Positions 18,334 to 33,863 of a stretch of DNA of 64,000 nt are shown in pieces. The stretch is taken from positions 22,536-86,535 of the forward strand of contig JBGAHN010000003.1 of the NCBI GenBank assembly GCA_044226145.1, read 5' to 3'. Within the stretch, counting starts at the first letter, position 1; each line of letters starts with the position of its first letter. The DNA is from Labilithrix sp. GTDB lineage: Bacteria; Myxococcota_A; Polyangia; Polyangiales; Polyangiaceae. The notes beneath the pieces are model-generated. The model did not search any database, was not told the origin of the DNA, and was given only the letters and a program-made list of their open reading frames with translations. The translations under genes and the position numbers were made by a program.

Positions 18334-20070
18334 CTACGTGCCGTTCGGCCCCTTCGCCTTCACCGCCAGGATGCGCGCGGCCTCCCGAAGGACGTGGTTT
18401 TCGGGGTTTTGCGTGGCGAGCTCGGCGTAAAGCTCGGCGGCCGACGCGTACGAACCTTCGGCGGCCTTGTCGAGGGCGACGCGCGACGGCGTTTTGCGAG
18501 CGCCGGGGCCGGCCGATGCGCGAGGGGATGGTGAGGGCGACGCGGAAGGGGCCGCGACCGGCATCGGGGGTGCGCTCGACACGGTCGCGACGACGGCCAT
18601 CGGCGACGGCGTGACTTGGGCCGATGCCATCGAAGTGCTCGGAAGGGTCGCCGACGGCGCCGCCGATGATGGCGATGGAACCGACGACGGCGAGGGCGGC
18701 GGAGAGACGGACGCGGACGACGGCGAGGGCGGCGGAGAGACGGACGCGAGCGAGGAGGCGTCCGCTCTCGATTGCAGGCACAAGAGAAGAACGGCGAGCG
18801 TGGTCGGAAGGACGAGGGCGACCGTCAGCTTGCGAACCGGCGACGCATGCTTCCAAGCCACGACGACGCGCTCGAGATGCGGCGATCGAAGGGAAACGGC
18901 AGGCGATGAAGCGGACTTTCGGTCGGTCGTCGTGGCATTTCGTTCGACCATGGGAGCGGCCATCGTCGCGGGAGCGGGGGAGCCATCGTAGGCGCTGACG
19001 CAAGCGTTGGCGGCAGGGCGATGCCAGCCAGAGCCCGCGGTACCCACGACGGAACGCGCCGAAATCCACTCCATCGACGGGGGAACGACGACCCGCGATG
19101 GCGCTCCGACATCGCCACCCCGGACCGGCTCGTGAGGCATGACGGGGGCTCGTCGTGGATCGCCGACGGACGGCTCGATGCGGGACGGCGGCATCGACGG
19201 CGAAGCGACGTGCGCCGGCCGCGAGGGCGCCGGGCGCATCGACATGGGACGCATCGAAACGGGAGGCGACAACGCCGGCGGCGCCGATCGAGACGCCATG
19301 GTTCGTGGAGGCATCGACGGCGACGCCATGCTCATCGGCGCGACCCTCGAGGGCGGCGACGCCATGCGCGGCGGCGATGGCGGTGGCGGTGGCGGAGACT
19401 CGGGCGGCGGAGAGAGGGACGCCGTCGGGAACGTAGGTGGCCGCGGAGGCGAGGCCGGAGCACCGCCATCCGCGCGGGACGACGCGTCGATCGCCGGAAT
19501 CACCATCGTGCGGTACGGATCGAACGGCTTCGGCGAGGGAACGTCGGGCTTGGGCGACGTCATCTCCGACACTGGTCTCCGAATCGCCGCCGCACGCGCC
19601 GACGTCTCCGATGCGGACGGGCCGAGCGGAGGAGGAACCTCCGTGGTTGCGTCCCCCACCGAGGGGACGTTCGCGCGCTCGCTCACGAGGGCCGCGAGGA
19701 GCTCGTCCGTCGAATCGGCGACCATCGTCGATCCCTCGTTCGCCGCCTTCTCTGCGCCCGAAGCCCGCGGAATCAGCGAAATCCGTGCGCCGCCGAACGC
19801 GAGGTGCGCGAACGTCGTCACCCGCATCCACGCGTCGTCGAGAGGCCGGCCGTTGAGCCACGCGCGGTGCGGCACCGAAGAGCGCACGAGCAGCGACGCG
19901 CCGTCGTGCATGACCACGACGTGAACGGGGGCGACGTCGGCCGCGCGAACGCGCCAAGTGCCGTTCGTCCCCACGGTGAACGGGATCTTCGCGTAGGCGG
20001 AATAGAGCACCTGCTCGGTTTCGTCGCTCGCTCCGTCGACGAGGCGAAGAACGAAGTCACTCGGCGGCAT
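18334..20070 (-). CDS. Degenerate FHA-domain protein with long Pro/Ser-rich linker, one TM helix and a short helical C-terminus
   Basis: N-terminal FHA-like fold (FTVGTNG..APVHVVV..AWLNG), Pro-rich repeats, TM LTVALVLPTTLAVLLLCL; start overlaps cpaF2 stop by 14 nt. Confidence 0.75.
   Translation of the reverse strand: MPPSDFVLRLVDGASDETEQVLYSAYAKIPFTVGTNGTWRVRAADVAPVHVVVMHDGASLLVRSSVPHRAWLNGRPLDDAWMRVTTFAHLAFGGARISLIPRASGAEKAANEGSTMVADSTDELLAALVSERANVPSVGDATTEVPPPLGPSASETSARAAAIRRPVSEMTSPKPDVPSPKPFDPYRTMVIPAIDASSRADGGAPASPPRPPTFPTASLSPPPESPPPPPPSPPRMASPPSRVAPMSMASPSMPPRTMASRSAPPALSPPVSMRPMSMRPAPSRPAHVASPSMPPSRIEPSVGDPRRAPVMPHEPVRGGDVGAPSRVVVPPSMEWISARSVVGTAGSGWHRPAANACVSAYDGSPAPATMAAPMVERNATTTDRKSASSPAVSLRSPHLERVVVAWKHASPVRKLTVALVLPTTLAVLLLCLQSRADASSLASVSPPPSPSSASVSPPPSPSSVPSPSSAAPSATLPSTSMASAQVTPSPMAVVATVSSAPPMPVAAPSASPSPSPRASAGPGARKTPSRVALDKAAEGSYASAAELYAELATQNPENHVLREAARILAVKAKGPNGT
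18683..18748. repeat. Perfect 33-bp tandem repeat x2 within the Pro/Ser-rich linker
   Basis: gacgacggcgagggcggcggagagacggacgcg at 18683-18715 and 18716-18748. Confidence 0.9.
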
Positions 20071-21178
20071 GATCCACGCCCTTTCGAAGCATCGCGTCGG
20101 GGAGACGCTCACCGTGCTCTTCCACCTGCTCTTTGCAGGCCGGGACGATGCCCGTCGGGACCAGGCGGCTCACGATGCGACGGTCCTTCGTGACGCCGCC
20201 GTAGCGACGCACGAACAAATCTTGGACGTCGTAGCGCTGCGCCGCGACGTCGAAGCCGAGGACCTCGCTGATGTGCGTCACCTTGCGGCTCCCGTCTTGC
20301 AGGCGCGAGACCTGGACGATCACTTGGATGCCCGAACCAATCTGCGTCCGCATCGCGGCGAGCGGCATCCCGACGTCGCTCATCATCGCCATCGTCTCGA
20401 GTCGGGCGAGCGTGTCGCGCGGGTACGTCGCGTGCAGCGTCCCCATGCAACCGCCGTGACCGCTCGTCATGGCTTGCACGATGTCGAGCGCCTCGCCGCC
20501 GCGGATTTCTCCGACGACGATGCGGTCCGGGCGCATGCGCAGCGTCGCGCGGAACAAATCCCGGATCGTCACCGCATCGCGGCCCTTCGGATCGGCCGGG
20601 CGCGCCTCGAGCTGAACGACGTGCGGCTTTTGGAACTGCACTTCGCGCGAATCTTCGATGATCACGACGCGTTCGCCGTCGGGGATGAACCCGGAGAGGG
20701 CGTTGAGCATCGAGGTCTTGCCGCTGCCCGTCCCTCCCGCGACGACGATGTTGACCTTCGCCACCACGAACGCCCGGAGCGCCTCGGCCGCGTCGGACGT
20801 CATCGAATCGAACGACAAGAGGCGTTCGACCGTCAGCGTCTCCTTGAAGAACCGGCGAATGGCGACGTGCGGCCCGTCGGGAGCGACCGGCGGCAAAATG
20901 GCTTCGACGCGCGACCCGTCGGGCATGCGCCCCTCGAGAATGGGACGTTGTTCCGTGATGGGTTTTCCGACGTATTGCGAGAGGTTCCGCAGCGCCGCGA
21001 CGAGCGCTTCACGGCTGTCGAAGCGCGCGTCCGTCTTGGAGACGACGCCACGCTGCTCGATGTAGATCTGGTCAGGCCCGTTGATCATGATCTCGCTGAC
21101 GGACGCGTCATCCAAGAACGGACGAATGGGCGCGAAGAATCCGAGGATCGTTTTTTCGAAGATCGGGGTCGGAATCAC
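20057..21178 (-). CDS. cpaF: Tad/Flp pilus assembly ATPase CpaF/TadA, second copy (no FHA)
   Basis: EIMINGP, GGTGSGKT, IIEDSRE, LRMRPDRIVVGEIRGGEA, MTSGHGGCMGTLHA; GTGA overlap with upstream gene. Confidence 0.92.
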   Translation of the reverse strand: MIPTPIFEKTILGFFAPIRPFLDDASVSEIMINGPDQIYIEQRGVVSKTDARFDSREALVAALRNLSQYVGKPITEQRPILEGRMPDGSRVEAILPPVAPDGPHVAIRRFFKETLTVERLLSFDSMTSDAAEALRAFVVAKVNIVVAGGTGSGKTSMLNALSGFIPDGERVVIIEDSREVQFQKPHVVQLEARPADPKGRDAVTIRDLFRATLRMRPDRIVVGEIRGGEALDIVQAMTSGHGGCMGTLHATYPRDTLARLETMAMMSDVGMPLAAMRTQIGSGIQVIVQVSRLQDGSRKVTHISEVLGFDVAAQRYDVQDLFVRRYGGVTKDRRIVSRLVPTGIVPACKEQVEEHGERLPDAMLRKGVDHAAE

Positions 21179-21750
21179 GGCTTGCCTCCCAGGAGGTTGC
21201 CGCGCACCTCTTCGGCATAGGCACCGGCAGGGTCGGATTTCAGGTATTCTCGAAATTCGGCATTGGCCAATTTAGGATTCCCGCGATCGCGCTCGATCTG
21301 CGCGAGCACGTAGTGCGCATCGGCGAAATTCGGCTGCGCGAGGAGGATGTGTTTCAAGTCTCTGTACGCACCGTCCGCGTCTCCGAGGGCCCTTCGAAGG
21401 ACCGCGGCGGCGAACCGAATGTCCGGGTCGACCGGGTGCTTGCGGAGGAATTCGTCGGCGTACTCGAGCGCCGCCGGATACCGTCCGTCCGCGACGCACA
21501 CCGCGACGAGGCGTCGTGTGAGTTTACCGGCCTCGCCGCCGGAGCGGAGCGCCGCCACGAAGTACTGTTCGGCGCGGGTCATGTCACCGACCGCGGCGAA
21601 CGCCTCTCCGCGCGCCACGAGCTGCGCAGGCGTCGATTCGCGCCGCATCACCTCCAAGTCCCGCTTCAGCTTCGGTTGCGCCGGCGCGCAGCCCGCCGCG
21701 GTCGACATCGCCACCAACGCCACGACGAGCACCTTCGACCATCGTTCCAT
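21175..21750 (-). CDS. TPR-containing lipoprotein (TadD/pilotin-like)
   Basis: Signal peptide ending AAGC; TPR-like helices (GEAFAAVGDMTRAEQYF, AHYVLAQIERDRGN). Confidence 0.8.
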   Translation of the reverse strand: MERWSKVLVVALVAMSTAAGCAPAQPKLKRDLEVMRRESTPAQLVARGEAFAAVGDMTRAEQYFVAALRSGGEAGKLTRRLVAVCVADGRYPAALEYADEFLRKHPVDPDIRFAAAVLRRALGDADGAYRDLKHILLAQPNFADAHYVLAQIERDRGNPKLANAEFREYLKSDPAGAYAEEVRGNLLGGKP

Positions 21751-22607
21751 CACGGCTTCTCCGTTCGTTGGCTCTTGATCTGTCGCTCGACACCGCCGAG
21801 CCACGCGACGAACGGTCCTTGCTGGCCCTCGGTGAGGCGCGTGAGGGCGTCGACGTCGTTGCTGGCGAGCTCGAAGTCCTTCACGGCGAGCGAATGCTCG
21901 AGCCGCAAGCGGCGCGCGCGCAGCTCGAGGACGGTGGCTTCCCGAAGGTCCTTCGACGCGGCCTCGGCCTCGGTCGCGGCGGCTTCGTCGTGCGCGAGTC
22001 GGTAGCACGCGGCCGCGACGGTGTAGGCGTTGACGGCCTCGACGGCCTCGCGTGGGGAAAACGGGCTTCGTTCGCGCGCGGCGTCGGCGAACGTGCGTTG
22101 GTCCGCGCCGAGGACGCGGGCTTCGGCGGACTCGGTGCGCGGGCACGCCACGTCGCTCGTCGAGAACAGGTTCGGCAGCTCGAGCTCCTCGACGTCGAAG
22201 GTCCTCCTCTTCGACATCAAGAACAACGCGAGCACCGCCGGCACCGCGAGCACACACGCCACGCGCACGAGCATCGTGGACCGCGCCGTCCCTGGTTTCG
22301 CCGCGACGTCGCGCGGTGCGCGCGCGGCGTGGATCTGCGTGTCACCGATCTTCAAGAGCCCCCACTGCGGCACGACGCGGACCCCGAGGGGAACGCCGTC
22401 GAGCGCCGCAGGAGGAGCGGACGCGACACCTTGGAAGCGGACGCCGTCGGCGACCAGCTCGACGACCACGTGCTCGGCGGCGGCTTGGTCGACGGCGAGT
22501 CTCACGTCGCAGTGCGCGCCGGCTCCGACCGTGGCGCGGGAGGCCTGGACGACGAGCCGCTCGCGGCGGCCGTCCGGATGGCGAACTTCGAACCGAATTT
22601 CTTCCAC
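21750..22607 (-). CDS. Degenerate FHA-domain membrane protein
   Basis: GTG 22607 with SD GAGG; ATVGAGAHCDVRL..AAAEHVVV (FHA-like), TM LVRVACVLAVPAVLALFLM; stop overlaps the TPR gene start. Confidence 0.75.
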   Translation of the reverse strand: MEEIRFEVRHPDGRRERLVVQASRATVGAGAHCDVRLAVDQAAAEHVVVELVADGVRFQGVASAPPAALDGVPLGVRVVPQWGLLKIGDTQIHAARAPRDVAAKPGTARSTMLVRVACVLAVPAVLALFLMSKRRTFDVEELELPNLFSTSDVACPRTESAEARVLGADQRTFADAARERSPFSPREAVEAVNAYTVAAACYRLAHDEAAATEAEAASKDLREATVLELRARRLRLEHSLAVKDFELASNDVDALTRLTEGQQGPFVAWLGGVERQIKSQRTEKP

Positions 22608-22642
22608 GACGACACCTCGGAGACCGCGGTTGCGGCCTGTCC

Positions 22643-23542
22643 TCAAAGCCCCGTCTGCTTCAACGTGAGGATGATGGGGCCGACGATGAGGATCAGAATG
22701 GCGACGAACACGAGCAGAAGCGGCCCGATCATCGAGACCGCTGCCTTTGCAGCAGCCTCTTCGGCCCGAACGCTCCTTCGTTGCCTGGAAATTTCGGCTT
22801 GGATGCGGAGCACGTCGGCGAGCGGATTTCCCCGCAATTCCGCCTGGACGACGGCGCCGACGAACTCCTTCACCGGGTCGATGGGCGTCCGCTCGGCGAA
22901 CTCTTCGAGGGCTTGCCGTCGCGTGCGCCCGAGGTTGAGCGCGTGGAGCGTCAACGACAGCTCCTCGATGAGCGGATCGTCCGGCGTCCCCGTCTTCTCG
23001 AGGACCTGCTTGACCGCGCCCGGGAAGTCGAGCCCTGCGCCCATGCCGAGCGCGATGTGGTCGATGGCGTTCGGTAGCCGTCGCCCGATGGCCTTCGCGC
23101 GCTCGGCGACCTCGCCCGATAGCCACAGGTACGGTGCGAAGCCGCCGAAGCACCCGACCCCCATCACCACGAACGGTCCCATCTTCGCGAGCGGGCCCCA
23201 AGCGGCGCCAAGGCCGAACGCCAGGGCTCCGCAGAGCACGCTCAAGAAGACGAACTCTTCGGGGAGGAGGCCGAGGATGCCTCCCGCCATGCCGATTTGC
23301 CGGTCGAGGGACGCGTGGAACTTCGCGGAGAGGAACGGGCCGACGCGCACCCCTCCCCAACGCACGATCGGCTCCACCTGGACCCAACCACCTTGGCCGG
23401 CGAGCGCTCGCTGGCGCTTGAGGCCTCGAAGTCCGGTTCGTCCGGCCTCGCGCGTCGGCGCCGCGGCGGCGGCATACCCGAGGAGAAGAAGACCCAAGAA
23501 CAGGGCCACGCACGCCGTCGTTTTGAGGAGATCGAATTTCAT
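22643..23542 (-). CDS. tadC: Tad pilus inner-membrane platform protein TadC (T2SS F family)
   Basis: LPNAIDHIALGMGAGL, LGRTRRQALEEFAER, QAELRGNPLADVLR, AEEAAAKAAVSMIGPL. Confidence 0.9.
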   Translation of the reverse strand: MKFDLLKTTACVALFLGLLLLGYAAAAAPTREAGRTGLRGLKRQRALAGQGGWVQVEPIVRWGGVRVGPFLSAKFHASLDRQIGMAGGILGLLPEEFVFLSVLCGALAFGLGAAWGPLAKMGPFVVMGVGCFGGFAPYLWLSGEVAERAKAIGRRLPNAIDHIALGMGAGLDFPGAVKQVLEKTGTPDDPLIEELSLTLHALNLGRTRRQALEEFAERTPIDPVKEFVGAVVQAELRGNPLADVLRIQAEISRQRRSVRAEEAAAKAAVSMIGPLLLVFVAILILIVGPIILTLKQTGL

Positions 23543-24405
23543 ATGTCCACCGTGAGGATTTTTCTCGCGAGGAGCAGCGCGGCGAGCCACAAGGTGACGG
23601 CCACACCAATGGCTATTTGTCCGTAAATCGATTGTTGGAGCGGCTCGAAATAGCCAGGTTTGACCGCGTTGAAGGCCCACGCCGCGCCGGCGGGGAAGAG
23701 CGCCAGAACCCAGAGCTGCGCGCGCCCCTCCCCCGTTTTGCTGCGGACGACGCCGAACAAGCGGTTCATCTCGCGGATCGTCCCGGCCGTTCGCTCGAGC
23801 GTGAATGGCAAATTTCCACCGACACGAAGGCCGATGAGGACCGCCGAGAACGCCACGTCGACGGACTTGCTCCCGAGGCGCGACGACATCGCCACGAGCG
23901 CCTGCTCGAGCGTGCTGCCGACGCGCATCTCACTCAGGACCTGTTCGATCTCCTGCCGCATCGGCTGACGGAGCACCACGGTCGTGGCTTCGAGCGCGGC
24001 GCCGGGGCTCGGGACCGTTTTGAGGGAGTTCGCGAGCGAGACGATGAACCCGTCGATCTGATCTTCGATGAGCGCAATATGCTTTTTTCGCGCCCTCGCG
24101 AGACCAACCGCCGGCGCGAACACCGCGACGAGGATCCCCAGCGGCCAGTGACGAACGCCGATCGTGAGTTGCGCGAGGACGACGCCGAAAGCAGCGAGCA
24201 CCTGTCCCGTCACGATGCGTTTGCCGTTCTCGGGCAAGAACAACGCGCGAAGCGACCGATCGAGGTACGTGACGTACCGCGACAGGAGCCGCGTCGCGAC
24301 CGAACCAGGCATCGCGAACGCGAAGGCCAAAAAACCCGCGCCGAAGGCGACGAGCGCGAGGGCCACGATTTTCGTCCCACCGAGGGTCAGCGCCGGCAAG
24401 TTCAA
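23539..24405 (-). CDS. tadB: Tad pilus inner-membrane platform protein TadB
   Basis: Follows cpaF; SLANSLK, EMRVGSTLEQAL, GGNLPFTLERTAGTIRE, TGEGRAQLWVL. Confidence 0.88.
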   Translation of the reverse strand: MNLPALTLGGTKIVALALVAFGAGFLAFAFAMPGSVATRLLSRYVTYLDRSLRALFLPENGKRIVTGQVLAAFGVVLAQLTIGVRHWPLGILVAVFAPAVGLARARKKHIALIEDQIDGFIVSLANSLKTVPSPGAALEATTVVLRQPMRQEIEQVLSEMRVGSTLEQALVAMSSRLGSKSVDVAFSAVLIGLRVGGNLPFTLERTAGTIREMNRLFGVVRSKTGEGRAQLWVLALFPAGAAWAFNAVKPGYFEPLQQSIYGQIAIGVAVTLWLAALLLARKILTVDI

Positions 24406-26099
24406 AGGTAGTCCTCCCCTTCGCCGACGAGATCCATGACGACGAAGTCGTTGAGGTAGGTCGGCAAAAAGCCTGTCGCTCGAAACTCGCCGAGGACTTT
24501 GCCTTTCGGTCCGGTACCCGTTCGCACGTACTCGAAGATCGGGACGAGCTCGATTTCGCCATCGTCGCCGATACCGGTCACCTCGGTGATCGAGGTCACG
24601 CGGCGGCTACCGTCGGAGAGCCGCGATTGCTGAACGAAGAGCTGCACGCTGCCGGCGATTTGTTCGCGGATCGCGCGCACCGGCAAATCGAGCCCCGCCA
24701 TGAGCACCAGCGTCTCGAGCCTCGCGACGGCCTCTCGCGGCGAGTTGGCGTGCGTCGTCGTGAGCGAGCCGTCATGACCAGTGTTCATCGCCTGGAGCAT
24801 GTCGAGCGCTTCGCCGCCACGGCATTCGCCGACGACGATGCGGTCGGGGCGCATGCGGAGCGCGTTCTTCACGAGATCGCGAATCGTGTATTCGCCATTT
24901 CCCTCCATGTTGGGCGGCCGCGTCTCGAGCGAGACGACGTGCGGTTGCTTGAGCTGGAGCTCGGCGGCGTCTTCGATGGTGACGACGCGCTCTTCGGAGG
25001 GAATGGCCGCGGACAAGGCGTTGAGGAGCGTCGTCTTTCCGCTGCCGGTGCCGCCGGAAATGACGATGTTCTTCTTGGCGACGACGCTTCGCGTGAGGAA
25101 TTTCGCCATGCGATCGGTCATGGCGCCGAACTCGATGAGCTTGTCGATCGTGAGCGGCGACCGCGAGAACTTGCGAATGGTGATGGCCGATCCGCGGAGC
25201 GCCAGCGGCCTTATCACGGCGTTGACACGCGAGCCGTCCGCGAGGCGCGCATCGACGAGCGGGACGGACTCGTCGATGCGGCGGCCGAGGGGCGTGACGA
25301 TGCGTTCGATCGCCGCGCGGACGCGGTCGTCGTTCGTGAACTTCGCGTCGGCGCGCGTGAGCTTGCCGCGTTGCTCGACGTAGATCGTATTCGGGTCGAC
25401 GACCATGATCTCGTTGACGGTCGGATCCGAGAGGAAGCGCTCGAGGGGACCCAAGCCCAGCGCTTCGTCCGCGAGCGCGCCGACGAGCTCGTGGCGATCC
25501 ACGTGCGCGGGAATGCGATCCCCGAGGGCGTCGACGATGCATCGAAGAGCAGTGAGGACCTTCGAGCGGAGCGCCGCGTCGTTCGCCGCGCCGCCTTTGA
25601 TCGCCGAAAGATCGAGGTGTTCGAGCAACTTTTTGTGCACCTCGGACCGCAACGCGTTGTCCGCCGCGCGCGCGTCGTCGTCGCTTCCCGAGAAGACTTC
25701 GTTCGCGCTCGAGCTCCCTTCGACCGACGGCGTGACCTTCATGGCCTTTTCGCTCGACGCGGCCTTCGCACTCGCCGTTCCGGGAAGATCGACGACGATG
25801 GTGTATTCACCAATCTCGATCGGCGTCCCGAAAGGCACGTCGATCGATGTTTGCTTCACCGAATGAATCCCCACCCGCGTACCGTTCGTCGATGTGTCCT
25901 GGACGCGCAACGACGAGCCGCGAAGGTCCACGATCACGTGCTGACGAGACGCGAGATCGCTCTTGAGGACGACGTTGCACTGCGCGTCTCGCCCGATGGT
26001 GAGCACGCCCTGCGAGAGCGAGAGCTCGTACGTCCTCGTGCGGTCGTTCTTGGTCACCGAGACCGACGCGCGAACGGGAGCGAAGGCCGGCGCGTTCAC
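24402..26099 (-). CDS. cpaF: FHA-fused Tad pilus ATPase CpaF/TadA
   Basis: N-terminal FHA (TIGRDAQC..SRQH..STNGT); GGTGSGKT, TIEDAAEL, LRMRPDRIVVGECRGGEA, MNTGHDGSLTTTHA. Confidence 0.95.
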   Translation of the reverse strand: MNAPAFAPVRASVSVTKNDRTRTYELSLSQGVLTIGRDAQCNVVLKSDLASRQHVIVDLRGSSLRVQDTSTNGTRVGIHSVKQTSIDVPFGTPIEIGEYTIVVDLPGTASAKAASSEKAMKVTPSVEGSSSANEVFSGSDDDARAADNALRSEVHKKLLEHLDLSAIKGGAANDAALRSKVLTALRCIVDALGDRIPAHVDRHELVGALADEALGLGPLERFLSDPTVNEIMVVDPNTIYVEQRGKLTRADAKFTNDDRVRAAIERIVTPLGRRIDESVPLVDARLADGSRVNAVIRPLALRGSAITIRKFSRSPLTIDKLIEFGAMTDRMAKFLTRSVVAKKNIVISGGTGSGKTTLLNALSAAIPSEERVVTIEDAAELQLKQPHVVSLETRPPNMEGNGEYTIRDLVKNALRMRPDRIVVGECRGGEALDMLQAMNTGHDGSLTTTHANSPREAVARLETLVLMAGLDLPVRAIREQIAGSVQLFVQQSRLSDGSRRVTSITEVTGIGDDGEIELVPIFEYVRTGTGPKGKVLGEFRATGFLPTYLNDFVVMDLVGEGEDYL

Positions 26100-27427
26100 G
26101 GCGTCCCCATCGTCGGCTGGGTGCCGGGACGTTTGTCGTAGGCCCGCGCCGTTTTGATATTTCCGTCGAACTTTTCGAACCGCGCGATCGCGGCGTCGAC
26201 GAGCTCCGAGGCTGGTGTCGACACCGCCTGCACCACGCTCGGGACGACGAACACCGCCCCTTCCGTCTCGAGCTCTTGGTTCTGGTGCGAACCGAACAAA
26301 AGCCCCAGGACGGGGATATCGGACAAGAGCGGAAGTCCGGTGACCGAATGCGTCTGCGACTGCGTACGAATACCGGACAGAACGATGGATTGACCGAGCT
26401 TCAACGTGATGTTCGTCGTCAATTTCGACGTCGTGCGCCCCGGCAGCGCGGAGTTGCCCACGGCGGCCACGAGATCGCTCACGTCGGCGTCGAGGCGCAT
26501 GTCGATCTCGCGTTTGCTCGGGTTGTACCGCGGGAGCACGGTGACGTTCGTGCCGTAAGGAATGCGCTGCACGCCGATCGTGAGCCCCGTGTTGACGGTG
26601 AAGTTTTGCTCACCGCCATTGGCGAAATTCGCCTCGACGCCGTTGTTCGTCACGACCGTGGCCTGCTTCAAGACCTTCGCCCATCCTTTGCGCGACGCGA
26701 TGTCGAGACGCGGGAGCGGCTGGTTCGTGATGCTCGCCGTCGCCGCGCGGCTGCCCGCGACGAAATCGAACGCCAGCGAGCTTTGAACGACCGAATCGCC
26801 GCCGATCTGGCCGGGCCACCCGAGGCCCACGCCATAGCTCGAATTGCGGTCGTATTGAACGAAGTAGAAGTCGATGCGAACGATGAATTTGTTCTCGTCG
26901 AGCGAACCTCCGGCACCTCCCGGGAGCGTCACCAAGGACTCCACTTGATTGGGATAGAGCGAGGCGACTTGCTGGACGCGTTTGAGCTCGGGTTCGGTCG
27001 CGACGATACCGTCGATGATGATATGCGATCCAATCCTTCGAACGCGCACGCCCGGCGCGTTCTCGAGGAGCTGCGCGAGCTCCTTTTCGACGACCTGGGG
27101 AGAGCGCGCGAACACGTGGATGTTGAGCGTGACCTGCGTTCCGTCGTTCTTGATGAGGAGGAGGGTCGTCGACCCGGGTTTGCGACCGTTGACGACGAAT
27201 TGCGAATTGTCCGTCGTCAACCGGACGTCGACGATCCCGGCGGCGCCCTCGGAGAAGTTGCGGACGTCTTTCGCCGAAAGCGTCTTCGTCTCTCCGACGG
27301 CCATGGCGATGTCTTCTCCGCTTTCGGCGGCGACGCGTTCGTTCGGGGCGGCGCTCGACGTGGAAGGCGCGAGCGCGAGCAGAGCGGCGGTGAGGGGGAG
27401 CGCGAAGCGCAGACGGTGGGTATTCAT
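26096..27427 (-). CDS. cpaC: Tad secretin RcpA/CpaC (pilus N-terminal domain + BON-like + secretin)
   Basis: Signal peptide; MAVGETKTL..VNGRKPGSTTLL; C-terminal secretin pattern (LKLGQSIVLSG, GLPLLSDIPVLGLLFGS). Confidence 0.9.
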   Translation of the reverse strand: MNTHRLRFALPLTAALLALAPSTSSAAPNERVAAESGEDIAMAVGETKTLSAKDVRNFSEGAAGIVDVRLTTDNSQFVVNGRKPGSTTLLLIKNDGTQVTLNIHVFARSPQVVEKELAQLLENAPGVRVRRIGSHIIIDGIVATEPELKRVQQVASLYPNQVESLVTLPGGAGGSLDENKFIVRIDFYFVQYDRNSSYGVGLGWPGQIGGDSVVQSSLAFDFVAGSRAATASITNQPLPRLDIASRKGWAKVLKQATVVTNNGVEANFANGGEQNFTVNTGLTIGVQRIPYGTNVTVLPRYNPSKREIDMRLDADVSDLVAAVGNSALPGRTTSKLTTNITLKLGQSIVLSGIRTQSQTHSVTGLPLLSDIPVLGLLFGSHQNQELETEGAVFVVPSVVQAVSTPASELVDAAIARFEKFDGNIKTARAYDKRPGTQPTMGTP

Positions 27428-28197
27428 CGGACGGGAATTTCTTTGACGGGAGTGGGACCGACGGGTGCGCGCCGGCGCGAGCTCTGGAAGGCCGGTCGAC
27501 GCGCGGCGTCGCCGAGATCCGCGAGGGTGACGTCGACCGGCGAATCGGTGATGCGCTGGTCTTGAGCATTGCGAACGACGACGGTGATCTCTCCTTTTTC
27601 CATCGCGAGCGCGAGGAGTTGGCTCTCCGAAAGCGAAACGCTGACGGTGATGACGCGTTCACGACGCTCTTTGGAGCCTTGCTCGAACGACGTGCTCACG
27701 CCGTTGGCGAGGACCAGCACGCGTTGGAGGAGGACCGATGCTTCTCTCGAGTCTCCACACACGCACACGATGTCCACGAAGTCCCCGGGGCGAACGAGCG
27801 GCAGCGAATCCGAAATTCGAACACGGATAGGGGCCGCGCGATTGCCGGGTTGGACGAGAGTGCTGAGCGGGCGAACATCGTCTTTCGGCAAGAGAACGTC
27901 CGCCCAGGCGATGCTCTGCTGAACCGGTATCGTGTTCGTCGCCTGGAGGTTCAGGATCTTGTCCTTGTCGGCGGCGCGGAGCACCCGATCGTCGACGTAC
28001 GCCGCCGGGATGTCGCGCGTTCCGAGCATGGCTTCGGTGATCAGCTTGCCGCGCGGAATGGTGTCGTTCGCGACGAGGACCTGAACGACGCGACCACCCG
28101 AAAGTTCCTGTTCGGCGCGTCGCAGATAGAGGAGGGTCAGGCCAACGCCGACGACGGCGGCGACGAGACCGATGAGACCGGCAGTACGAGCGTTCAC
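27424..28197 (-). CDS. cpaB: Flp pilus assembly protein CpaB/RcpC
   Basis: N-terminal TM, SAF domain (VLVANDTIPRGKLIT), LVRPGDFVDI, LLQRVLVLA; GTGA overlap with cpaA. Confidence 0.92.
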   Translation of the reverse strand: MNARTAGLIGLVAAVVGVGLTLLYLRRAEQELSGGRVVQVLVANDTIPRGKLITEAMLGTRDIPAAYVDDRVLRAADKDKILNLQATNTIPVQQSIAWADVLLPKDDVRPLSTLVQPGNRAAPIRVRISDSLPLVRPGDFVDIVCVCGDSREASVLLQRVLVLANGVSTSFEQGSKERRERVITVSVSLSESQLLALAMEKGEITVVVRNAQDQRITDSPVDVTLADLGDAARRPAFQSSRRRAPVGPTPVKEIPVR

Positions 28198-28742
28198 GGC
28201 GTTGGACTCCCAGACAGTGCGTTCACGACGAACGTGGACGCGGTTCCGAGGAAGATGGCGGGGCCGAGCCGAAACCACGTCGACATCTCTTGAGGGACGG
28301 CCTTTCGCTTTTCACGGCGACGAAACGGGTTCGTCACGAGCGTCAGCGTGTTCAGCAGCGTCCGCGTGAGCGTCCCTTCGTAAGCGAGCTTCATCGGCAC
28401 GAGGAGCGCCGCGGCCACGAAGGCATAGGTTTCGGCCTGGAGGCCTCCGAGCGGATGAAGCAGAGCGCCGAGGACGGCGAAGAGTTTCACGTCTCCGCCG
28501 CCCATCGCTCCTTTGAGGAACATGAAGAGCGGGACGAGGGCGCAGAGGAGCGCGCCCCCGATGGCGAATCCCGCTTGTTCGAGCCCTCCTCGCAGGCCAC
28601 CGAGGTTCGCCCCGTGCGCGAAGTGAGCGGCGATGGCGGCCACGAATCCGAAGAGCGTGAGCTTGTTCGGAATGTGGCCGGTCCGGTGGTCGGTCCACGC
28701 CGCGCATGCGGCGAGCAGCGTGGCTGCGAGGAGGAAGTACAT
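28194..28742 (-). CDS. cpaA: Prepilin peptidase CpaA/TadV (A24)
   Basis: AAWTDHRTGHIPN, MGGGDVKL, FRLGPAIF. Confidence 0.93.
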   Translation of the reverse strand: MYFLLAATLLAACAAWTDHRTGHIPNKLTLFGFVAAIAAHFAHGANLGGLRGGLEQAGFAIGGALLCALVPLFMFLKGAMGGGDVKLFAVLGALLHPLGGLQAETYAFVAAALLVPMKLAYEGTLTRTLLNTLTLVTNPFRRREKRKAVPQEMSTWFRLGPAIFLGTASTFVVNALSGSPTP

Positions 28743-28770: not shown

Positions 28771-28968
28771 TCACTTCGAGTAGCCTTCTGAGTTGATCGA
28801 ACCAACCGCCGTTCCCTGCGCCTTGATCTTGTCGCCAACATTTCCGCCAAACGTGCTGTAGGCACCGATGCAAAGGAGCGCCACGAGCCCAACCAGCATG
28901 ATGTACTCGACGAGGTTGGCGCCGCGGGTGTCACGAGCAAGACGACGGGTCACGAGACGAAGGTTCAT
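28771..28968 (-). CDS. flp: Flp family type IVc major pilin
   Basis: Strong SD; RDTRG|ANLVEYIMLVGLVAL (G cleavage site, E+5, Y+6); 65 aa. Confidence 0.92.
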   Translation of the reverse strand: MNLRLVTRRLARDTRGANLVEYIMLVGLVALLCIGAYSTFGGNVGDKIKAQGTAVGSINSEGYSK

Positions 28969-28992
28969 GATAATTTCTCCTGTTCTTCCTTT

Positions 28993-29012
28993 TTGAATGA
29001 TTCTTGAATGAT
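28993..29012. promoter_or_regulatory. Direct repeat TTGAATGAT x2 with 11-bp period upstream of flp
   Basis: Copies at 28993-29001 and 29004-29012 in an AT-rich patch. Confidence 0.45.
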
Positions 29013-29042
29013 GATTTCGAGCAACGAAGCTCGACCCGATAC

Positions 29043-29237
29043 CTAAGGCAGCGGGCCGAGCAGAAACGTTCGGTTGACGTCGAGCGCGCTCCCGAAGGCG
29101 GCCCCCAACGCGATGAGCGCGCCGATGCAGACCAGCGCGACCGAACCGACGAGCACCGTGTACTCCGTCAGCGCGGCGCCGCGCGTGTCGCGCAAGCAAC
29201 GTGTCCAGCGGAGGAGCGAAGAGCCCGACGAGTGCAT
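29043..29237 (-). CDS. Second Flp-like pilin
   Basis: SD GGAGGG; RDTRG|AALTEYTVLVGSVAL with E+5/Y+6; 64 aa. Confidence 0.82.
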   Translation of the reverse strand: MHSSGSSLLRWTRCLRDTRGAALTEYTVLVGSVALVCIGALIALGAAFGSALDVNRTFLLGPLP

Positions 29238-29333: not shown

Positions 29334-29993
29334 GTGATGAACAACGTCCATCCCTCCCCGAACTCCTCTCAGGGTCGGTCCCGCGGCCGGTCGAAAGAGG
29401 CGTCGAAGGGCAGCTCGAAAGGCCTCCTCCGAGAGACCCGGGGCGCCGTCTACGTCGAGTTCCTCATCGCGTTCCTGCCGGTCTTCGTCTTCTTCCTATG
29501 CATGATCCAGCTCTCGCTCCTCTTCTCGGCGAAGCTGATGGTCGAGCACGCCGCGGTCATCGGCGCCCGCGCGGCGGCGGTCGTCTTCGGCGACGCCCCC
29601 TCCGTCTACGGCGAGTCCGCCGCCGAGACGAACGTCATGACGAAGAAGCGACGGCAGACTGTGTATGACGCCGTCGTACTCTCGCTCGCGCCGCTCATCC
29701 TCGACGGCTCGCTCGTGTCGCTGAACGTCCTATTTCCCGAGGCCACGAAGCCCGACGGCAAAGACCAACCGGAAGGAACACGCATCGACGCCATGAACCT
29801 CGGCGGGACCCACATGACCCGTGTCCGCGTCGAAGCGAAGGTCGTCTGCAAAATCGCGCTAGCCGACGCCATCGCCTGTTCGGGATTCGGCAATTACCTT
29901 CGCGACGCCGCGGGGTTCGCGCGCCTCGCAAACGTCCGCGCCGAGAGCATATTTCCATATCAGGGAGCGAGTTATGTTTACGAAGAACGATGA
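29334..29993 (+). CDS. tadE: TadE-like pseudopilin
   Basis: RETRG|AVYVEFLIAFLPVFVFFL, VEHAAVIGARAAAV. Confidence 0.9.
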   Translation: MMNNVHPSPNSSQGRSRGRSKEASKGSSKGLLRETRGAVYVEFLIAFLPVFVFFLCMIQLSLLFSAKLMVEHAAVIGARAAAVVFGDAPSVYGESAAETNVMTKKRRQTVYDAVVLSLAPLILDGSLVSLNVLFPEATKPDGKDQPEGTRIDAMNLGGTHMTRVRVEAKVVCKIALADAIACSGFGNYLRDAAGFARLANVRAESIFPYQGASYVYEER

Positions 29994-31647
29994 CTCGCAC
30001 GTGCGTCTGCCGCACGACGAGCGCGGCGCGATCATGGTCATGGGCATTTTCATGTGCACATGCCTGGTCGGAGCGCTCTGGTATTTGGCCTCCATCGGCG
30101 ACTCGATCCTCTATCGCGAACGCCTGCAGGAAGCTTCGGACGCGGTCGTCTTCAGCAATGTCGTCCTGCACGCACGCGGGATGAACCTCATCGTCCTCAT
30201 CAATCTCATCATGGCGTGCGTGCTCGGGGTGCGTGTCGCGCTCAAGGTCGCGCAACTCGTCTGCGCCATCGCCGGCGCGGTATTCTTCGTCATCGGTATC
30301 TTCGCCCCGCCGTTCATGTCGGCGGCGGAGCCGTGCTTGGATGCGGCGATCGAACTCCAAACGGTCATCGACGACACTCGCCCGACGATCAACGATACGC
30401 TGAAGGCCCTCAGCGGCACGCAGACACTGATCGCGAAAGCGACCCCGGGCGCTGCCCTCATCGGCGCTACCATTTCCGTGGGAGGTAAATACAAGCCGCT
30501 CGTTCCGGGCGCGCTCGTCCTCGACGAAGAGGTCGTTGAAGGTCTGCCCGTGGCGCGCGGGGGCGAGACCAAGCTCTGCAAAGAGGCCGGTCGTTCGCTG
30601 GGCGGAATTACCGGTTGGCTGCTCAAGGAAATCGGACTCGACGCGTTCGGAGCAGCGAGCGAGTGGCTCGGCGACAAAATGGGCACCATCGCCAATCTAG
30701 CGCCGGGCTACTTCTGCGAAATGGGGTCGGTCGGCGGCTCGCCGGAAGCGGCCATCGACGCCATGCTCGGCGACTCCGCGCAGAAACGCTGCGAGAACGG
30801 TGGGCCCGCCGTCGCCTACGAGCAAGCCGAGTCCGAATGGCAATCGGCGTGCACCGACGCCGGCGTCACGTGCGAGGGCGACAGCGGCAACGACCGACCG
30901 GTGGAGAGCCGTCAAATCTCGGAAGTTGGACGACAAACCGGCAGCACGACCCCCGAGAAGCAGCGCGAGCTCGATGAGCTACGTACGAGACGCGACGCGG
31001 CGGCGAAGTCGGTCAACGGATATCTGGATGCTTTCCGCTCTCGACCGTTCGTCGATGAATCGATGTGCGAAACGTGGGCAAAAACCGTCGCCAAGGCCGA
31101 ATTCGAAGAAACCCGAGCCAAAAACAAGTCCTCCGGCGAAACCGATACGACCGATATGACCGGAAAGCAGGTCAAGGAAGGTTGGTACAACGGCGGTCCG
31201 GAAGCTCAGTTCGTCGGCGGCGCCATCGGCAAAGCCTCGTTCCTCGAGCGATCGGTGAAATTCGTTCGAATCGCGGCGGTCGACGATGCGCGGATGAGCG
31301 ATACGAAAGCCCCGATCGAGGCCCAAATCCCTGCGTGGACCCAGGCCGAGCTGTTCTTCGACTGCGAGGAGAGCTGGTCGAAGTGCAACGATGAAGAAGA
31401 CGCCATGTGGCACTTGAAGTGGCGGGCGCGCCTGCGCCGCTACGATGGCTCGAAGCCGTTGGACGAGATCGCATCGCTCTTTGCGCTCGGGGTGACCGTG
31501 AAGGACGCCGCCACAGGAATGAAGGCCGTCGCGGCGGACCCCGGGACTTCGGCCCCACTCAATGCGCTCGTAGGAAACACGCGGCTACGCGGCGAACTGG
31601 CCGGAGTCATCGGAGACACTCACGTGATGACCCATGGAATTCATTGA
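29974..31647 (+). CDS. TadG-like large minor pilin/tip protein, Cys-rich
   Basis: DERG|AIMVMGIFM, RERLQEASDAVVFS..ARGMNLI (Tad N-terminal motif). Confidence 0.82.
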   Translation: MFTKNDDSHVRLPHDERGAIMVMGIFMCTCLVGALWYLASIGDSILYRERLQEASDAVVFSNVVLHARGMNLIVLINLIMACVLGVRVALKVAQLVCAIAGAVFFVIGIFAPPFMSAAEPCLDAAIELQTVIDDTRPTINDTLKALSGTQTLIAKATPGAALIGATISVGGKYKPLVPGALVLDEEVVEGLPVARGGETKLCKEAGRSLGGITGWLLKEIGLDAFGAASEWLGDKMGTIANLAPGYFCEMGSVGGSPEAAIDAMLGDSAQKRCENGGPAVAYEQAESEWQSACTDAGVTCEGDSGNDRPVESRQISEVGRQTGSTTPEKQRELDELRTRRDAAAKSVNGYLDAFRSRPFVDESMCETWAKTVAKAEFEETRAKNKSSGETDTTDMTGKQVKEGWYNGGPEAQFVGGAIGKASFLERSVKFVRIAAVDDARMSDTKAPIEAQIPAWTQAELFFDCEESWSKCNDEEDAMWHLKWRARLRRYDGSKPLDEIASLFALGVTVKDAATGMKAVAADPGTSAPLNALVGNTRLRGELAGVIGDTHVMTHGIH

Positions 31648-32206
31648 GGGTGACATGTCCATTCGAAACCAATCACCGAAACGTTCGAGAAGGCATCGCC
31701 CTCGCGGCGCGGTGTTCGTCGAAGCACTCGTCGTCATCTCCGTATTCATCCTCTTCCTCCTGGGAATCCTCTTCTTTCGAGAACTGTACCTAAAAAAGCT
31801 GAGCACGATGCGACTCGCCAGGGCCGGCGCGATGGCGCACGCGATGGCGGCATGCAAGCCGGACATCGGCGCCATCTTGCGCGACGACATCCCCGCGTCG
31901 TCGAAGGCATCGCGACGCTCGACCACCGAGCCCCTCCTCACGGAACGGGCGAAAGCACCCGAGTCGAAAGCCGACAACATTTTCGACAAGATGGACGACG
32001 GGAGCGGAGGAACGCCGCTCAACGAAGTCAATGACGTCGGGCTCTCGAGCTCCGCTAGCGCCACCTCGAAGCCAAGTCCATTCGAGGCGGAGATCGGATT
32101 TCGGGGAGACGTCACCTCCAACTCGTACGTGAGCTGCGGGGACGAGCTTCAAACAGAACAATATGGCGCCATCGCGCCGTTCATCGCGTCTCAAATCTAC
32201 AAATGA
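31634..32206 (+). CDS. Second TadE/TadF-like pseudopilin
   Basis: RPRG|AVFVEALVVISVFILFLL, RLARAGA; start 31634 or 31655. Confidence 0.8.
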   Translation: MEFIEGDMSIRNQSPKRSRRHRPRGAVFVEALVVISVFILFLLGILFFRELYLKKLSTMRLARAGAMAHAMAACKPDIGAILRDDIPASSKASRRSTTEPLLTERAKAPESKADNIFDKMDDGSGGTPLNEVNDVGLSSSASATSKPSPFEAEIGFRGDVTSNSYVSCGDELQTEQYGAIAPFIASQIYK

Positions 32207-33183
32207 TTCTCCCCATGAAGCGAGCCTCCCGACCTTCACGACACGTCCTCCGCTGGATCATCCCATCGATGCGCACGCTGCGCGTGACGGCGTATGCCAC
32301 GTTCGCCTTCGGGCTCCTCGCGTTGCTCGCCGCGCGGTCCGTTTACGCCGACGCACGCGAGATCGCGCTCGGCGTCGGGCATCAGCTCGGGACGCTTGAG
32401 GACCTCACGGGGGGCGCGTACCTCCTGCACGTCAACGGGGCCGAGATTCACCGCTCCAGCGCGCGCACGGACCTCTCGATGAAGGAGGTGCTCGATCGCT
32501 ACCAAGCTTATTGTGCGGCGAGCCCGTCGGCGCTCGGACTCGCGATGCGTGACATCCCTCGCGCGCTCGAAGAACGCGTGGAGCTGCCGAAGGACGATCC
32601 GCTCCGCACGGGTATCGTCCGCGAGGAGGACGATACCCGCGGGATGGTCGCTTGCTTCGTCGACGACGGCGCGGCGAACCGCGGCCTCGAAGGCGTTCGT
32701 GAACGCGTCGGAGAATTTCGGCGCACCGGCGACCTCACCGCGTTCGGCAAATTCCGATACGCGTTCGTGGAAAAGCGCGCGAGCGGTGGGAGCCACGTCG
32801 TCACACTCTGGTCGGACGGCGGCCTCATCGTCGGCCACATGTTCCCCGCGAGCGGTGACGCGCCCGGGACGGACTCGACGCTCGCGCCTCGCCCCGCCGG
32901 GAGCCGACGCACGTTCGCGGCGTGGGCCGAAGGTTACCCCGCCGGCGTTCGCATCTACGAGGCGCACGCTCCCCGCGCCGACGTCGAACGCCACTACGAC
33001 GACGTCTTCGCGAAGGCGGAGTTCCAGAAGGTCGCCCGTGAAGGTGGCGCCGCTTACGTCGGCCCCGACGGAACGGAGGTGTTCGTGGCCTTGCGCACGG
33101 CGGGAGACCGGACGCTCGCCACCGTCGTCGAAGCCGGCCGTGAATCCGTGCGCGACGTGCATGCCGAATGGAGGGAACCGTGA
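32203..33183 (+). CDS. Hypothetical membrane-anchored/exported protein in the Tad operon
   Basis: ATGA overlap; N-terminal hydrophobic segment; 326 aa. Confidence 0.75.
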   Translation: MILPMKRASRPSRHVLRWIIPSMRTLRVTAYATFAFGLLALLAARSVYADAREIALGVGHQLGTLEDLTGGAYLLHVNGAEIHRSSARTDLSMKEVLDRYQAYCAASPSALGLAMRDIPRALEERVELPKDDPLRTGIVREEDDTRGMVACFVDDGAANRGLEGVRERVGEFRRTGDLTAFGKFRYAFVEKRASGGSHVVTLWSDGGLIVGHMFPASGDAPGTDSTLAPRPAGSRRTFAAWAEGYPAGVRIYEAHAPRADVERHYDDVFAKAEFQKVAREGGAAYVGPDGTEVFVALRTAGDRTLATVVEAGRESVRDVHAEWREP

Positions 33184-33863
33184 AACGATCGTTCATCGCT
33201 ATGGCCTGCTCCGCCCTCTCGTTCGGCGGCGTGGGATGCCGTGAATCCACCCAAGACCTGAGCGCAACCATCGACTTCGGCATCGACGTCGACGTGACGA
33301 GCGATCCGGGAAAGGGAACGCCGAGCGCGGAGATCGTCGCGCGTGGTCGATCGATCGCGACGACGGACGGCGCGGGGCACGTGAGCCTCCAGCTCGGAGG
33401 CGCGGAGGGCGACGTCGTCGAGCTGTCCGTCAAATGCCCGGCGGGGTTCGAGTCACCGAGCCAGCCCATGTCCGTGGCGATTCATCGCTTGTCGACCGCG
33501 TCGCGCCGACCGCACTTCGATGCGCGGTGTGCGCCGCAACGGCGAACCGTCGTCGTGGGTGTCCGCGCCGACCGAGGGCCGAACCTCCCCGTGATGCACC
33601 TCGGGCGGGAGGTCGCGCGAACCGACGAATCGGGCGCCGCCCTCGTGGCGCTCACCGTGAAGCCGGGAGAGCACGTTTCCCTGATGCTCGACACGAAGAC
33701 GGACGCGACCAAGGGCCCGAAGCTCTTGCCCGAAAGCCCGATTCTCACGTTCGTCGCGCAAGATCGCGACGACTTCGTCACGCTCGATCAGCGGTTCGAC
33801 GTCGAGAAAATCGCTCCGAAGAGCGCACCCAGGCCCAAGCGGGCGGGCCCGACGCGCATTTGA
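33180..33863 (+). CDS. Hypothetical lipoprotein (Ig-like beta-rich) in the Tad operon
   Basis: GTGA overlap; signal ending GVGC; two repeats of G.(S/E)(I/V)A(T/R)TD..G. Confidence 0.75.
   Translation: MKRSFIAMACSALSFGGVGCRESTQDLSATIDFGIDVDVTSDPGKGTPSAEIVARGRSIATTDGAGHVSLQLGGAEGDVVELSVKCPAGFESPSQPMSVAIHRLSTASRRPHFDARCAPQRRTVVVGVRADRGPNLPVMHLGREVARTDESGAALVALTVKPGEHVSLMLDTKTDATKGPKLLPESPILTFVAQDRDDFVTLDQRFDVEKIAPKSAPRPKRAGPTRI

Follow-up and report, generated by a model that had tools for sequence, protein, structure and literature searches.

A 64,000-nucleotide stretch of contig JBGAHN010000003.1 from Labilithrix sp. (hereafter, the window) carries on its minus strand the operon of a Tad/Flp pilus machine, which encodes two intact motor ATPases of the CpaF family: an FHA-fused long form, CpaF1, and a short paralogue lacking the N1 domain, CpaF2. 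Both ATPases form an old module conserved in many relatives, a stronger case than a single-locus oddity would be, and this two-motor arrangement departs from the known single-ATPase Tad and Kil systems; a literature search found no published description of an N1-less second CpaF encoded within such an operon. A single reversible motor is assumed for Tad pili, and since the pair is conserved across many relatives, it could represent a natural split into a push and a pull motor. The best reading of the sequences, which we hold tentatively, is that the two ATPases divide the labour on one TadB/TadC platform in the manner of PilB and PilT.

Two intact CpaF-type ATPases in one operon

The first-pass annotation of this DNA had placed in the operon two intact CpaF ATPases, one fused to an FHA domain and one consisting of the ATPase only, and both open reading frames proved to be exact (Table 1). 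CpaF1 matches the Pfam family T2SSE with E=2.1e-59; an FHA domain at residues 34–97 (E=2.3e-10) is followed by the three-helix N1 region at approximately residues 145–210, and then by the N2 domain and the C-terminal domain (CTD). CpaF2 matches T2SSE with E=3e-54 and comprises only N2 and the CTD. For both proteins, TIGR03819 (TadA family) is the top NCBIfam model. The Walker A, Asp box, Walker B, and His box motifs, which had been reported for both ATPases, can be read in the translations as GGTGSGKT, IEDAAELQ, RPDRIVVGE, and GHDGSLTTTHAN in CpaF1, and as GGTGSGKT, IEDSREVQ, RPDRIVVGE, and GHGGCMGTLHAT in CpaF2. In an alignment of 65 CpaF1 and 88 CpaF2 cores against the solved Caulobacter CpaF sequence, residues E308, D309, E312, R347, R349, D351, R352, E357, R359, E362, H374, H382, and R392 are invariant in both groups. 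Judging by these residues, CpaF2 is predicted to be fully competent for ATP hydrolysis.

In PDB sequence matches, CpaF1 aligns with residues 129–476 of Caulobacter CpaF (372 bits, 4e-110) and CpaF2 with residues 145–476 (305 bits, 8e-90); since the latter alignment begins at residue 145, CpaF2 is without the N-terminal domains NTD0 and NTD1. The AlphaFold2 model of CpaF2 consists of two domains, N2 and CTD, with a predicted local distance difference test (pLDDT) score of 90, and a Foldseek search found CpaF to be its nearest fold, with a template-modelling score of 0.81 to 9E24 and of 0.57 to PilT. A start-codon artefact as the reason for the small size of CpaF2 was ruled out, because the start at position 21178 is the earliest start codon past the upstream stop, and the relatives of CpaF2 are 365–388 amino acids long, many of them with fewer than 30 open codons upstream. 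CpaF2 is evidently short by nature, and its architecture is of the PilT type, with N2 and CTD only, a size in the class of about 340–375 amino acids, and a longer N1-bearing partner. The identity of a conjugative VirB11/TrbB ATPase was likewise rejected, given that TadA is the best family, CpaF the nearest fold, and the gene is embedded in a tad operon.

The genes of the operon are arranged in the order flp–flp–cpaA–cpaB–cpaC–cpaF1–tadB–tadC–FHA/transmembrane protein gene–TPR lipoprotein gene–cpaF2–FHA-like/TPR-like protein gene, and translational coupling by start/stop overlaps spans the region from cpaA to the gene located 3' of cpaF2. Both ATPase genes were said in the first-pass annotation to be embedded by 4-nucleotide overlaps; this is correct through the junction of the TPR lipoprotein gene and cpaF2, but not for the next junction, where the overlap is 14 nucleotides long (ATGCCGCCGAGTGA).

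Conservation and phylogeny of the pair

Counting cpaF pairs in related tad loci and building a phylogeny of both ATPases had been proposed as checks, and both analyses bear out the pairing. Among 61 related Polyangiales loci whose upstream sequence extends over 6 kb or more, FHA-cpaF1 accompanies cpaF2 in 57, including two with an assembly-fragmented cpaF1. In most of these 57 loci, cpaF1 precedes cpaF2 by about 3.3 kb, and the genes follow the order cpaF1–tadB–tadC–FHA/transmembrane–TPR–cpaF2; detachment of the FHA/transmembrane–TPR–cpaF2 module from cpaF1 was found in 4 of the 61. Carriers of the pair include Labilithrix luteola, Chondromyces apiculatus, and one metagenome-assembled genome (MAG) of Sorangium, and the closest relatives of the locus belong to Polyangiaceae and Labilithrix MAGs and isolates. 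One locus, L025 (CALFNG010000224.1), has cpaF1 and cpaF2 adjacent, 100 nucleotides apart, without tadB/tadC, the FHA/transmembrane gene, and the TPR gene between them.

Three paralogous systems of the Kil type were found in the source genome, each comprising one long and one short CpaF as well as a single TadC; parts of these systems are located in contig regions C276:66000-86000 (L012), C172:15298-16167, and C40:26000-56000 (L013 and L014). The second of these systems is split, its cpaF1 having no adjoining tadB/tadC and a tadC homologue being found on contig C172, and in the third one the TPR–cpaF2 module lies 13 kb off on the opposite strand.

A sample of 250 Myxococcota genomes contains short-type homologues, starting at residue 2–6, in many families, and a long homologue is often encoded within a few kb of them. 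Individual inspection of loci L095, L097, L099, L100, L118, and L119 revealed the long/short pair in other Myxococcota families (L095, L097, L118, and L119). MAG families f36 and f43 carry the dual-ATPase arrangement, and genomes G152 and G182 have an ordinary Tad locus without FHA. An FHA-long/short CpaF pair in one tad operon was also observed outside Myxococcota in L115 (ENA ERZ23486730 scaffold_80), from a MAG labelled Desulfosarcinaceae, in the order CpaB–secretin–FHA-CpaF–TadB–TadC–DUF192–FHA protein–double-FHA protein–short CpaF–TPR, and one short-type protein carries the label Sumerlaeota, the taxonomic labels of MAGs being accepted as given.

Within a locus, the cores of CpaF1 and CpaF2 are 42–50% identical. 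On a FastTree phylogeny of 210 sequences, CpaF2 and most N1-less representatives form one clade with a Shimodaira–Hasegawa (SH)-like support of 99, FHA-CpaF1 proteins form a separate clade with a support of 96, and Caulobacter CpaF falls into a third. An IQ-TREE phylogeny of 114 sequences agrees, with SH approximate likelihood ratio test values of 96 and 93 for the CpaF2 and CpaF1 clades, respectively, and places the two L115 ATPases in the corresponding clades. The distance matrices of CpaF1 and CpaF2 across the 61 loci are correlated with r=0.90, a value reached by none of 2000 permutations, and CpaF2 has evolved 1.37 times faster than CpaF1. The separate clades, the 42–50% identity, and the mirrored distances indicate that the pair is old and co-inherited; it is neither a chance association nor a recent duplicate. 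The possibility of a decaying copy was ruled out by the same divergence and separate clades, together with the invariant catalytic residues and the confidently modelled structure.

This conservation bears on the suggestion that CpaF2 could be a spare motor, either redundant or condition-specific, without a mechanistic role of its own, as in the case of Bdellovibrio tadA2: in B. bacteriovorus, the duplicated rcpA2–tadA2 genes are dispensable for predation and differently expressed (preprint 10.64898/2026.07.08.737194). However, the long retention of CpaF2 across families, its fixed synteny and translational coupling, the presence of the pair in all three paralogous systems of the source genome, and differences that are clade-specific and fixed, without drift, make a spare motor very improbable.

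As another possibility, CpaF1 and CpaF2 might co-assemble into one mixed hexamer (e.g., 3+3), a single asymmetric motor in which FHA/N1-bearing subunits alternate with N1-less ones. The strict 1:1 copy number of the two genes, their co-divergence, the retention of its own pair by each paralogous system in the source genome, and the direct adjacency of the genes in L025 are all consistent with such a ring. Moreover, natural single-chain CpaF fusions exist, and in P0125, P0131, and P0133 the N1 helices are confined to the first unit, the later units starting from N2, so that a ring of non-identical CpaF units is feasible. Nevertheless, each protein has all the catalytic and arginine residues of a self-sufficient homo-hexamer, the two genes are usually four genes apart and can be unlinked (4 of the 61 loci; Bradymonas), and CpaF2 evolves faster than its partner. 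The fusions themselves belong neither to the CpaF1 clade nor to that of CpaF2, and their units are mostly mutual nearest relatives, which points to independent duplication events; they were therefore rejected as Rosetta-stone evidence and speak for feasibility only. On balance, we consider a mixed ring unlikely. To our knowledge, no hetero-hexameric motor of the PilT/VirB11 class has been described, and if mixed rings of CpaF1 and CpaF2 proved to be true, that too would be new.

As for the fusions, P0125 (1156 amino acids) comprises three CpaF units, P0127, P0130, P0131, P0132, and P0133 comprise two, and P0128 has two units and a Q/P-rich tail. Some of the units have a degenerate Walker A motif (SGNSRAGKT, VGSTSTGKT). 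Such proteins would yield covalently linked pseudo-hetero-hexamers.

Asymmetries between the two ATPases and possible roles of CpaF2

How Tad pili are retracted with one ATPase is an open question. In a 2026 preprint, Tad is classed as 'class III, single inverting ATPase', and reversal by flipping of CpaF on the platform is proposed, the N-face with N1 serving extension and the C-face serving retraction (Whitfield et al. 2026, preprint 10.64898/2026.02.24.707734). According to the same work, extension and retraction motors engage opposite faces, the C-face elements are R387, which is required for retraction in Caulobacter, the beta13–beta14 turn, and the C-terminal motif, and the AIRNLIRE motif of PilT is placed on the beta13–beta14 turn. 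In Caulobacter, the D208K substitution and the quadruple substitution E331K/G332A/S333A/G334A each abolish Tad function, and the D208/E331 loops have been modelled against CpaG and CpaH (PMC11300603).

Faces were assigned following the model of the preprint and our mapping of its motifs onto the alignment of CpaF1 and CpaF2 cores. On the N-face, loop 8 and alpha5 show almost no variation among CpaF1 proteins and resemble those of Caulobacter (identity 0.65, entropy 0.17), while they are diverged in CpaF2 (identity 0.28, entropy 1.11). CpaF1 proteins have GRRIDESS in loop 8 and the pore loop N-[LM]-E-G; in CpaF2, loop 8 is variable and the pore-loop motif reads D-[PA]-[KR]-G. Position 331 is E in all 65 CpaF1 sequences and K or R in 81 of the 88 CpaF2 sequences (K198 in CpaF2 numbering); none of 32 distant members of the CpaF2 clade has E there. 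The extension-face motifs of the class III inverting CpaF, namely alpha5–loop 8 with D208 and E331 of the pore loop, are kept in CpaF1 and not in CpaF2. On the C-face, at least 90% of 45 diverse proteins of the CpaF2 clade have D310 and Y316 in the beta13–beta14 turn, while both columns are variable in CpaF1. Position 387, which varies more in CpaF1 than any other site of its segment, is R or K in 75 of 88 Polyangiales CpaF2 versus 25 of 65 CpaF1. The C-face asymmetry is made up of R387, in Polyangiales only, and the beta13–beta14 turn. A clean reciprocal loss of faces, considered as an explanation, held in part: the N-face asymmetry is strong, but the C-terminal motif follows the opposite trend.

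From this face-specific conservation, a retraction function could be proposed for CpaF2. Two different hexameric motor ATPases would then serve one TadB/TadC platform. FHA-CpaF1 would be the canonical motor, recruited or gated via its FHA domain and polymerising the Flp pilus. CpaF2, an old paralogue probably cut down to N2 and CTD and PilT-like in its domain make-up, would build its own ring, dock on the platform by its C-terminal face, and drive or accelerate pilus retraction, so that a PilB/PilT-like motor exchange would have arisen inside the Tad lineage. A division of labour had already been envisaged in the first-pass annotation; the N1-less architecture, the diverged N-face, and the kept C-face turn of CpaF2 lend it indirect support, and the functional split itself is what we infer from them. 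More tentatively still, one could hypothesise that an old duplication in the Tad/Epd lineage split the faces between an FHA-gated N1-bearing extension motor of the CpaF1/KilF type and an N1-less retraction motor using the C-face, which would re-invent the PilB/PilT solution independently and would be conserved across Polyangia, Bradymonadia, and other Myxococcota, possibly beyond. A role of the locus in predation may be proposed by homology, and forceful, separately regulated retraction could pull prey or toxin-tipped pili back in such predators.

Several observations weigh against this assignment of extension and retraction. The loop26–beta15 segment of the C-terminal motif (Caulobacter residues 458–476) is better kept in CpaF1 (entropy 0.98) than in CpaF2 (entropy 1.83). 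The CpaF1 of the window itself has Arg at position 387, and this position is not basic in distant members of the CpaF2 clade. The pore loop of CpaF2 is changed yet conserved, with D329 and G332 invariant, and contact of the N-face with the platform may therefore persist. The CpaF2-type gene of Bradymonas sediminis is located 2.8 Mb from the Kil-like locus, beside a Ser/Thr kinase-like gene, which equally fits a regulatory role. Finally, the Bdellovibrio TadA paralogue tadA2 is, as mentioned above, dispensable for predation (preprint 10.64898/2026.07.08.737194).

The changed yet conserved pore loop could alternatively suggest another client on the same face, and CpaF2 might be an accessory motor with no part in retraction, used for a separate step such as priming of minor pilins or the tip, handling of a second Flp pilin, or effector export via the secretin. 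Such a role would agree with the presence of a pair of Flp genes at the locus, with the TadE/TadG-like operon that diverges from them, and with the composition of the cpaF2 module, which includes the FHA/transmembrane protein, the TPR lipoprotein, and the FHA-like/TPR-like protein and is detachable from cpaF1–tadBC. However, there is one TadB/TadC pair per system, and a second platform gene was found beside cpaF2 in none of the loci examined; we regard an accessory motor as rather improbable. Should the motors differ in their clients, the two tandem divergent Flp pilin genes at the head of the operon (28771–29237) would be candidates.

Equally doubtful is a role of CpaF2 as a regulatory or docking ATPase in a Ser/Thr kinase/FHA layer, which would replace TadZ/CpaE and license or localise the machine. 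The operon is without TadZ/CpaE, FHA-type proteins flank cpaF2, a kinase is encoded near cpaF2 in L101, and orphan CpaF2-clade genes are located directly upstream of Ser/Thr kinase genes in B. sediminis and L117; the kinase neighbours of these orphan genes hint at a tie between CpaF2 and kinase/FHA signalling. On the other hand, the catalytic apparatus is complete, of the motor type, and without variation across a wide clade, and the fold is that of CpaF, with no likeness to the ParA/MinD fold of TadZ. The orphan genes (L096, B. sediminis G013:C1:3002000-3021999, and L117) share a conserved Obg/cytochrome-c-assembly neighbourhood, and the B. sediminis short CpaF is WP_111334926.1, unlinked to the Kil-like locus drawn in the 2021 Kil paper. 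Another orphan CpaF2-clade gene, in L116 (GCA_046766335.1 JBJNWC010000386.1), is coupled to a gene for a 600-residue DnaJ/TPR protein, and a few kb off there are genes for an FHA protein and for a prokaryotic ubiquitin-like set (ThiF, JAB, UQ_con, Prok-RING).

A lineage with the N-face/N1 features and the N1-less architecture on two co-inherited proteins would offer a direct genetic test of the flipping model, and cultured carriers, Labilithrix luteola DSM 27648, Chondromyces apiculatus DSM 436, and Bradymonas sediminis FA350, exist. With two motors, the parts list of Kil-type predation machines, which is single-ATPase from M. xanthus, would be revised.

Gene content of the locus and comparison with known systems

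The genes of the locus are listed in Table 1.

Table 1. Genes of the pilus locus in the window, with the evidence for each product and the overlap with the preceding gene of the operon
Feature	Position	Strand	Evidence	Overlap
Flp-type pilin 1, 64 amino acids, ...RG/AALTEY...	29043..29237	-	weak Flp_Fap match, E=0.0054	
Flp-type pilin 2, 65 amino acids, ...RG/ANLVEY...	28771..28968	-	Flp_Fap, E=9.3e-6	
Prepilin peptidase CpaA/TadV	28194..28742	-	Peptidase_A24, E=1.1e-16	
CpaB/RcpC	27424..28197	-	RcpC, E=4.9e-13; SAF	
CpaC secretin, 443 amino acids	26096..27427	-	Secretin, E=2.7e-30; T2SS-T3SS_pil_N	
CpaF1, FHA-fused CpaF/KilF-type ATPase, 565 amino acids	24402..26099	-	T2SSE, FHA, TIGR03819; CpaF1 clade	GTGA
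TadB/CpaG platform protein	23539..24405	-	T2SSF, E=2.9e-8	TTGA
TadC/CpaH platform protein	22643..23542	-	T2SSF, E=4.3e-15	ATGA
Protein with FHA/YscD-like N-terminal domain and transmembrane segment	21750..22646	-	weak Yop-YscD_cpl match, E=0.006; synteny kept	TTGA
TPR lipoprotein, signal peptide and Cys lipobox, TadD/YfiO-like	21175..21753	-	TPR_14, TPR_16, TPR_19	GTGA(TG)
CpaF2, N1-less CpaF paralogue (N2 and CTD), 373 amino acids	20057..21178	-	T2SSE, TIGR03819; CpaF2 clade	GTGA
578-residue protein coupled 3' of cpaF2, possibly KilD-like	18334..20070	-	domains judged by eye	14 nucleotides
Divergent TadE-like and minor-pilin/TadG-like genes and conserved unknowns	29334..33863	+	TadE, E=8.3e-6 (first gene)	

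The Flp_Fap values fall below the cut-off of Pfam, yet the G/xxxxEY motif was found in the pilins. The likely start of cpaB is GTG at position 28197, overlapping the stop codon of cpaA, and the longest open reading frame begins at 28278. The positional counterparts of the FHA/transmembrane protein in L101 and L115 have Pfam FHA matches of 1e-7 to 1e-18. Searches of Pfam and NCBIfam with the last protein of the operon gave no match; inspection by eye suggests an FHA-like N-terminus, a Pro/Ser-rich linker with SPPPSPSS repeats, a transmembrane segment, and a TPR-like C-terminus. Roughly half of the related loci keep its N- and C-terminal parts 3' of cpaF2. The divergent plus-strand operon comprises genes at 29334–29993, 29974–31647, 31634–32206, 32203–33183, and 33168–33863, homologues of which flank related loci. 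No TadZ/CpaE ParA-like domain was detected in the genes within 17.8–33.9 kb, the remaining genome not being searched, and a promoter and terminator scan yielded nothing exceeding chance.

The locus has the components of a Tad/Flp (type IVc) system: an Flp-type pilin with a dedicated A24 prepilin peptidase, CpaB/RcpC, the CpaC/RcpA secretin, two separate T2SSF proteins, and a TadA/CpaF-type ATPase. It departs from such systems in having more than a single motor ATPase and in the absence of TadZ/CpaE from the operon region. By gene content, we assign it to the Kil-type (FHA-regulated, TadZ-less) Tad/Flp pilus machines. The Kil apparatus had been mentioned in the first-pass annotation, and a likeness to it is upheld by the FHA-fused ATPase, the putative FHA/YscD-like protein after the platform genes, the lack of TadZ, and the clade shared with the B. 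sediminis ATPase.

Tad systems have been described with a single ATPase (PMC6920026, PMC6668835), and the same is true for the Kil system of Myxococcus xanthus, a Tad-like apparatus that assembles upon prey contact and serves contact-dependent killing (Seef et al. 2021, PMC8460266; Herrou et al. 2025, PMC12075869); the supplements of both Kil papers list KilF as the only ATPase. The statement of the first-pass annotation that characterised systems rely on one ATPase is thus borne out (PMC6920026, PMC8460266, PMC12075869, preprint 10.64898/2026.02.24.707734). In the M. xanthus Kil table, the FHA-ATPase KilF is followed by KilD, a protein with FHA and TPR, and the platform genes are followed by an FHA/PrgH-like protein. 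Compared by published description, the two machines share an FHA-fused CpaF-type ATPase, Flp pilins, a prepilin peptidase, CpaB, a secretin, a TadB/TadC-type platform, TadG-like minor pilin genes, and the absence of TadZ. The FHA/PrgH-YscD-like membrane protein encoded after the platform genes in M. xanthus (MXAN_4649) has a putative counterpart, by position and domain type, in the 21750–22646 product of the window, and KilD, the FHA/TPR protein encoded after the ATPase gene, is resembled loosely and by eye by the 18334–20070 product. However, the M. xanthus genes are organised in two clusters with one ATPase, while the locus in the window is contiguous, with two ATPases, and has the extra N1-less CpaF2 and the TPR lipoprotein between the FHA/transmembrane gene and the last gene. 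The clade that includes CpaF1 (support 97) also includes an ATPase encoded in the Kil-like locus of B. sediminis. This ATPase was assigned to DN745_00690 by genome position and is listed under this tag as a KilF orthologue (PMC8460266 supplementary file 2); because M. xanthus KilF is absent from the tree, the link between CpaF1 and KilF is indirect.

The CpaF of Caulobacter crescentus (PDB 8RJF, 8RKD, 9E24) is a single bifunctional Tad motor (PMC6920026, PMC11300603, PMC12019362). Both proteins of the window belong to the CpaF lineage and have all its catalytic motifs, and CpaF1 retains N1 and the N-face motifs. In contrast to Caulobacter, where one gene serves both directions, two genes are present here; CpaF2 is without NTD0/NTD1 and has K/R replacing E331, and CpaF1 has FHA in place of the disordered NTD0.

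Another predator, Bdellovibrio bacteriovorus, has a Tad system with a TadZA fusion and extra tadA2 and tadA3 genes in separate loci, rcpA2–tadA2 and a lone tadA3 (preprint 10.64898/2026.07.08.737194). The resemblance consists in a predator Tad machine with more than one TadA-family gene and with FHA and TPR proteins nearby. However, the main motor is fused to TadZ in Bdellovibrio, while TadZ is absent here and the second ATPase is coupled within the main operon.

Type IV pilus systems with two motors, such as PilB/PilT, BfpD/BfpF, and MshE/PilT, have 'class I' motors. The pair described here resembles PilB/PilT in combining a long N1-bearing ATPase of the extension type with a short ATPase of N2 and CTD (about 350–375 amino acids) and one platform, and the conserved turn of CpaF2 is located where AIRNLIRE maps in PilT. 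However, CpaF2 branches inside the CpaF/TadA radiation, has CpaF as its nearest fold, and does not contain AIRNLIRE in its sequence. CpaF2 is not a PilT homologue and, if its function is analogous to that of PilT, this function arose independently.

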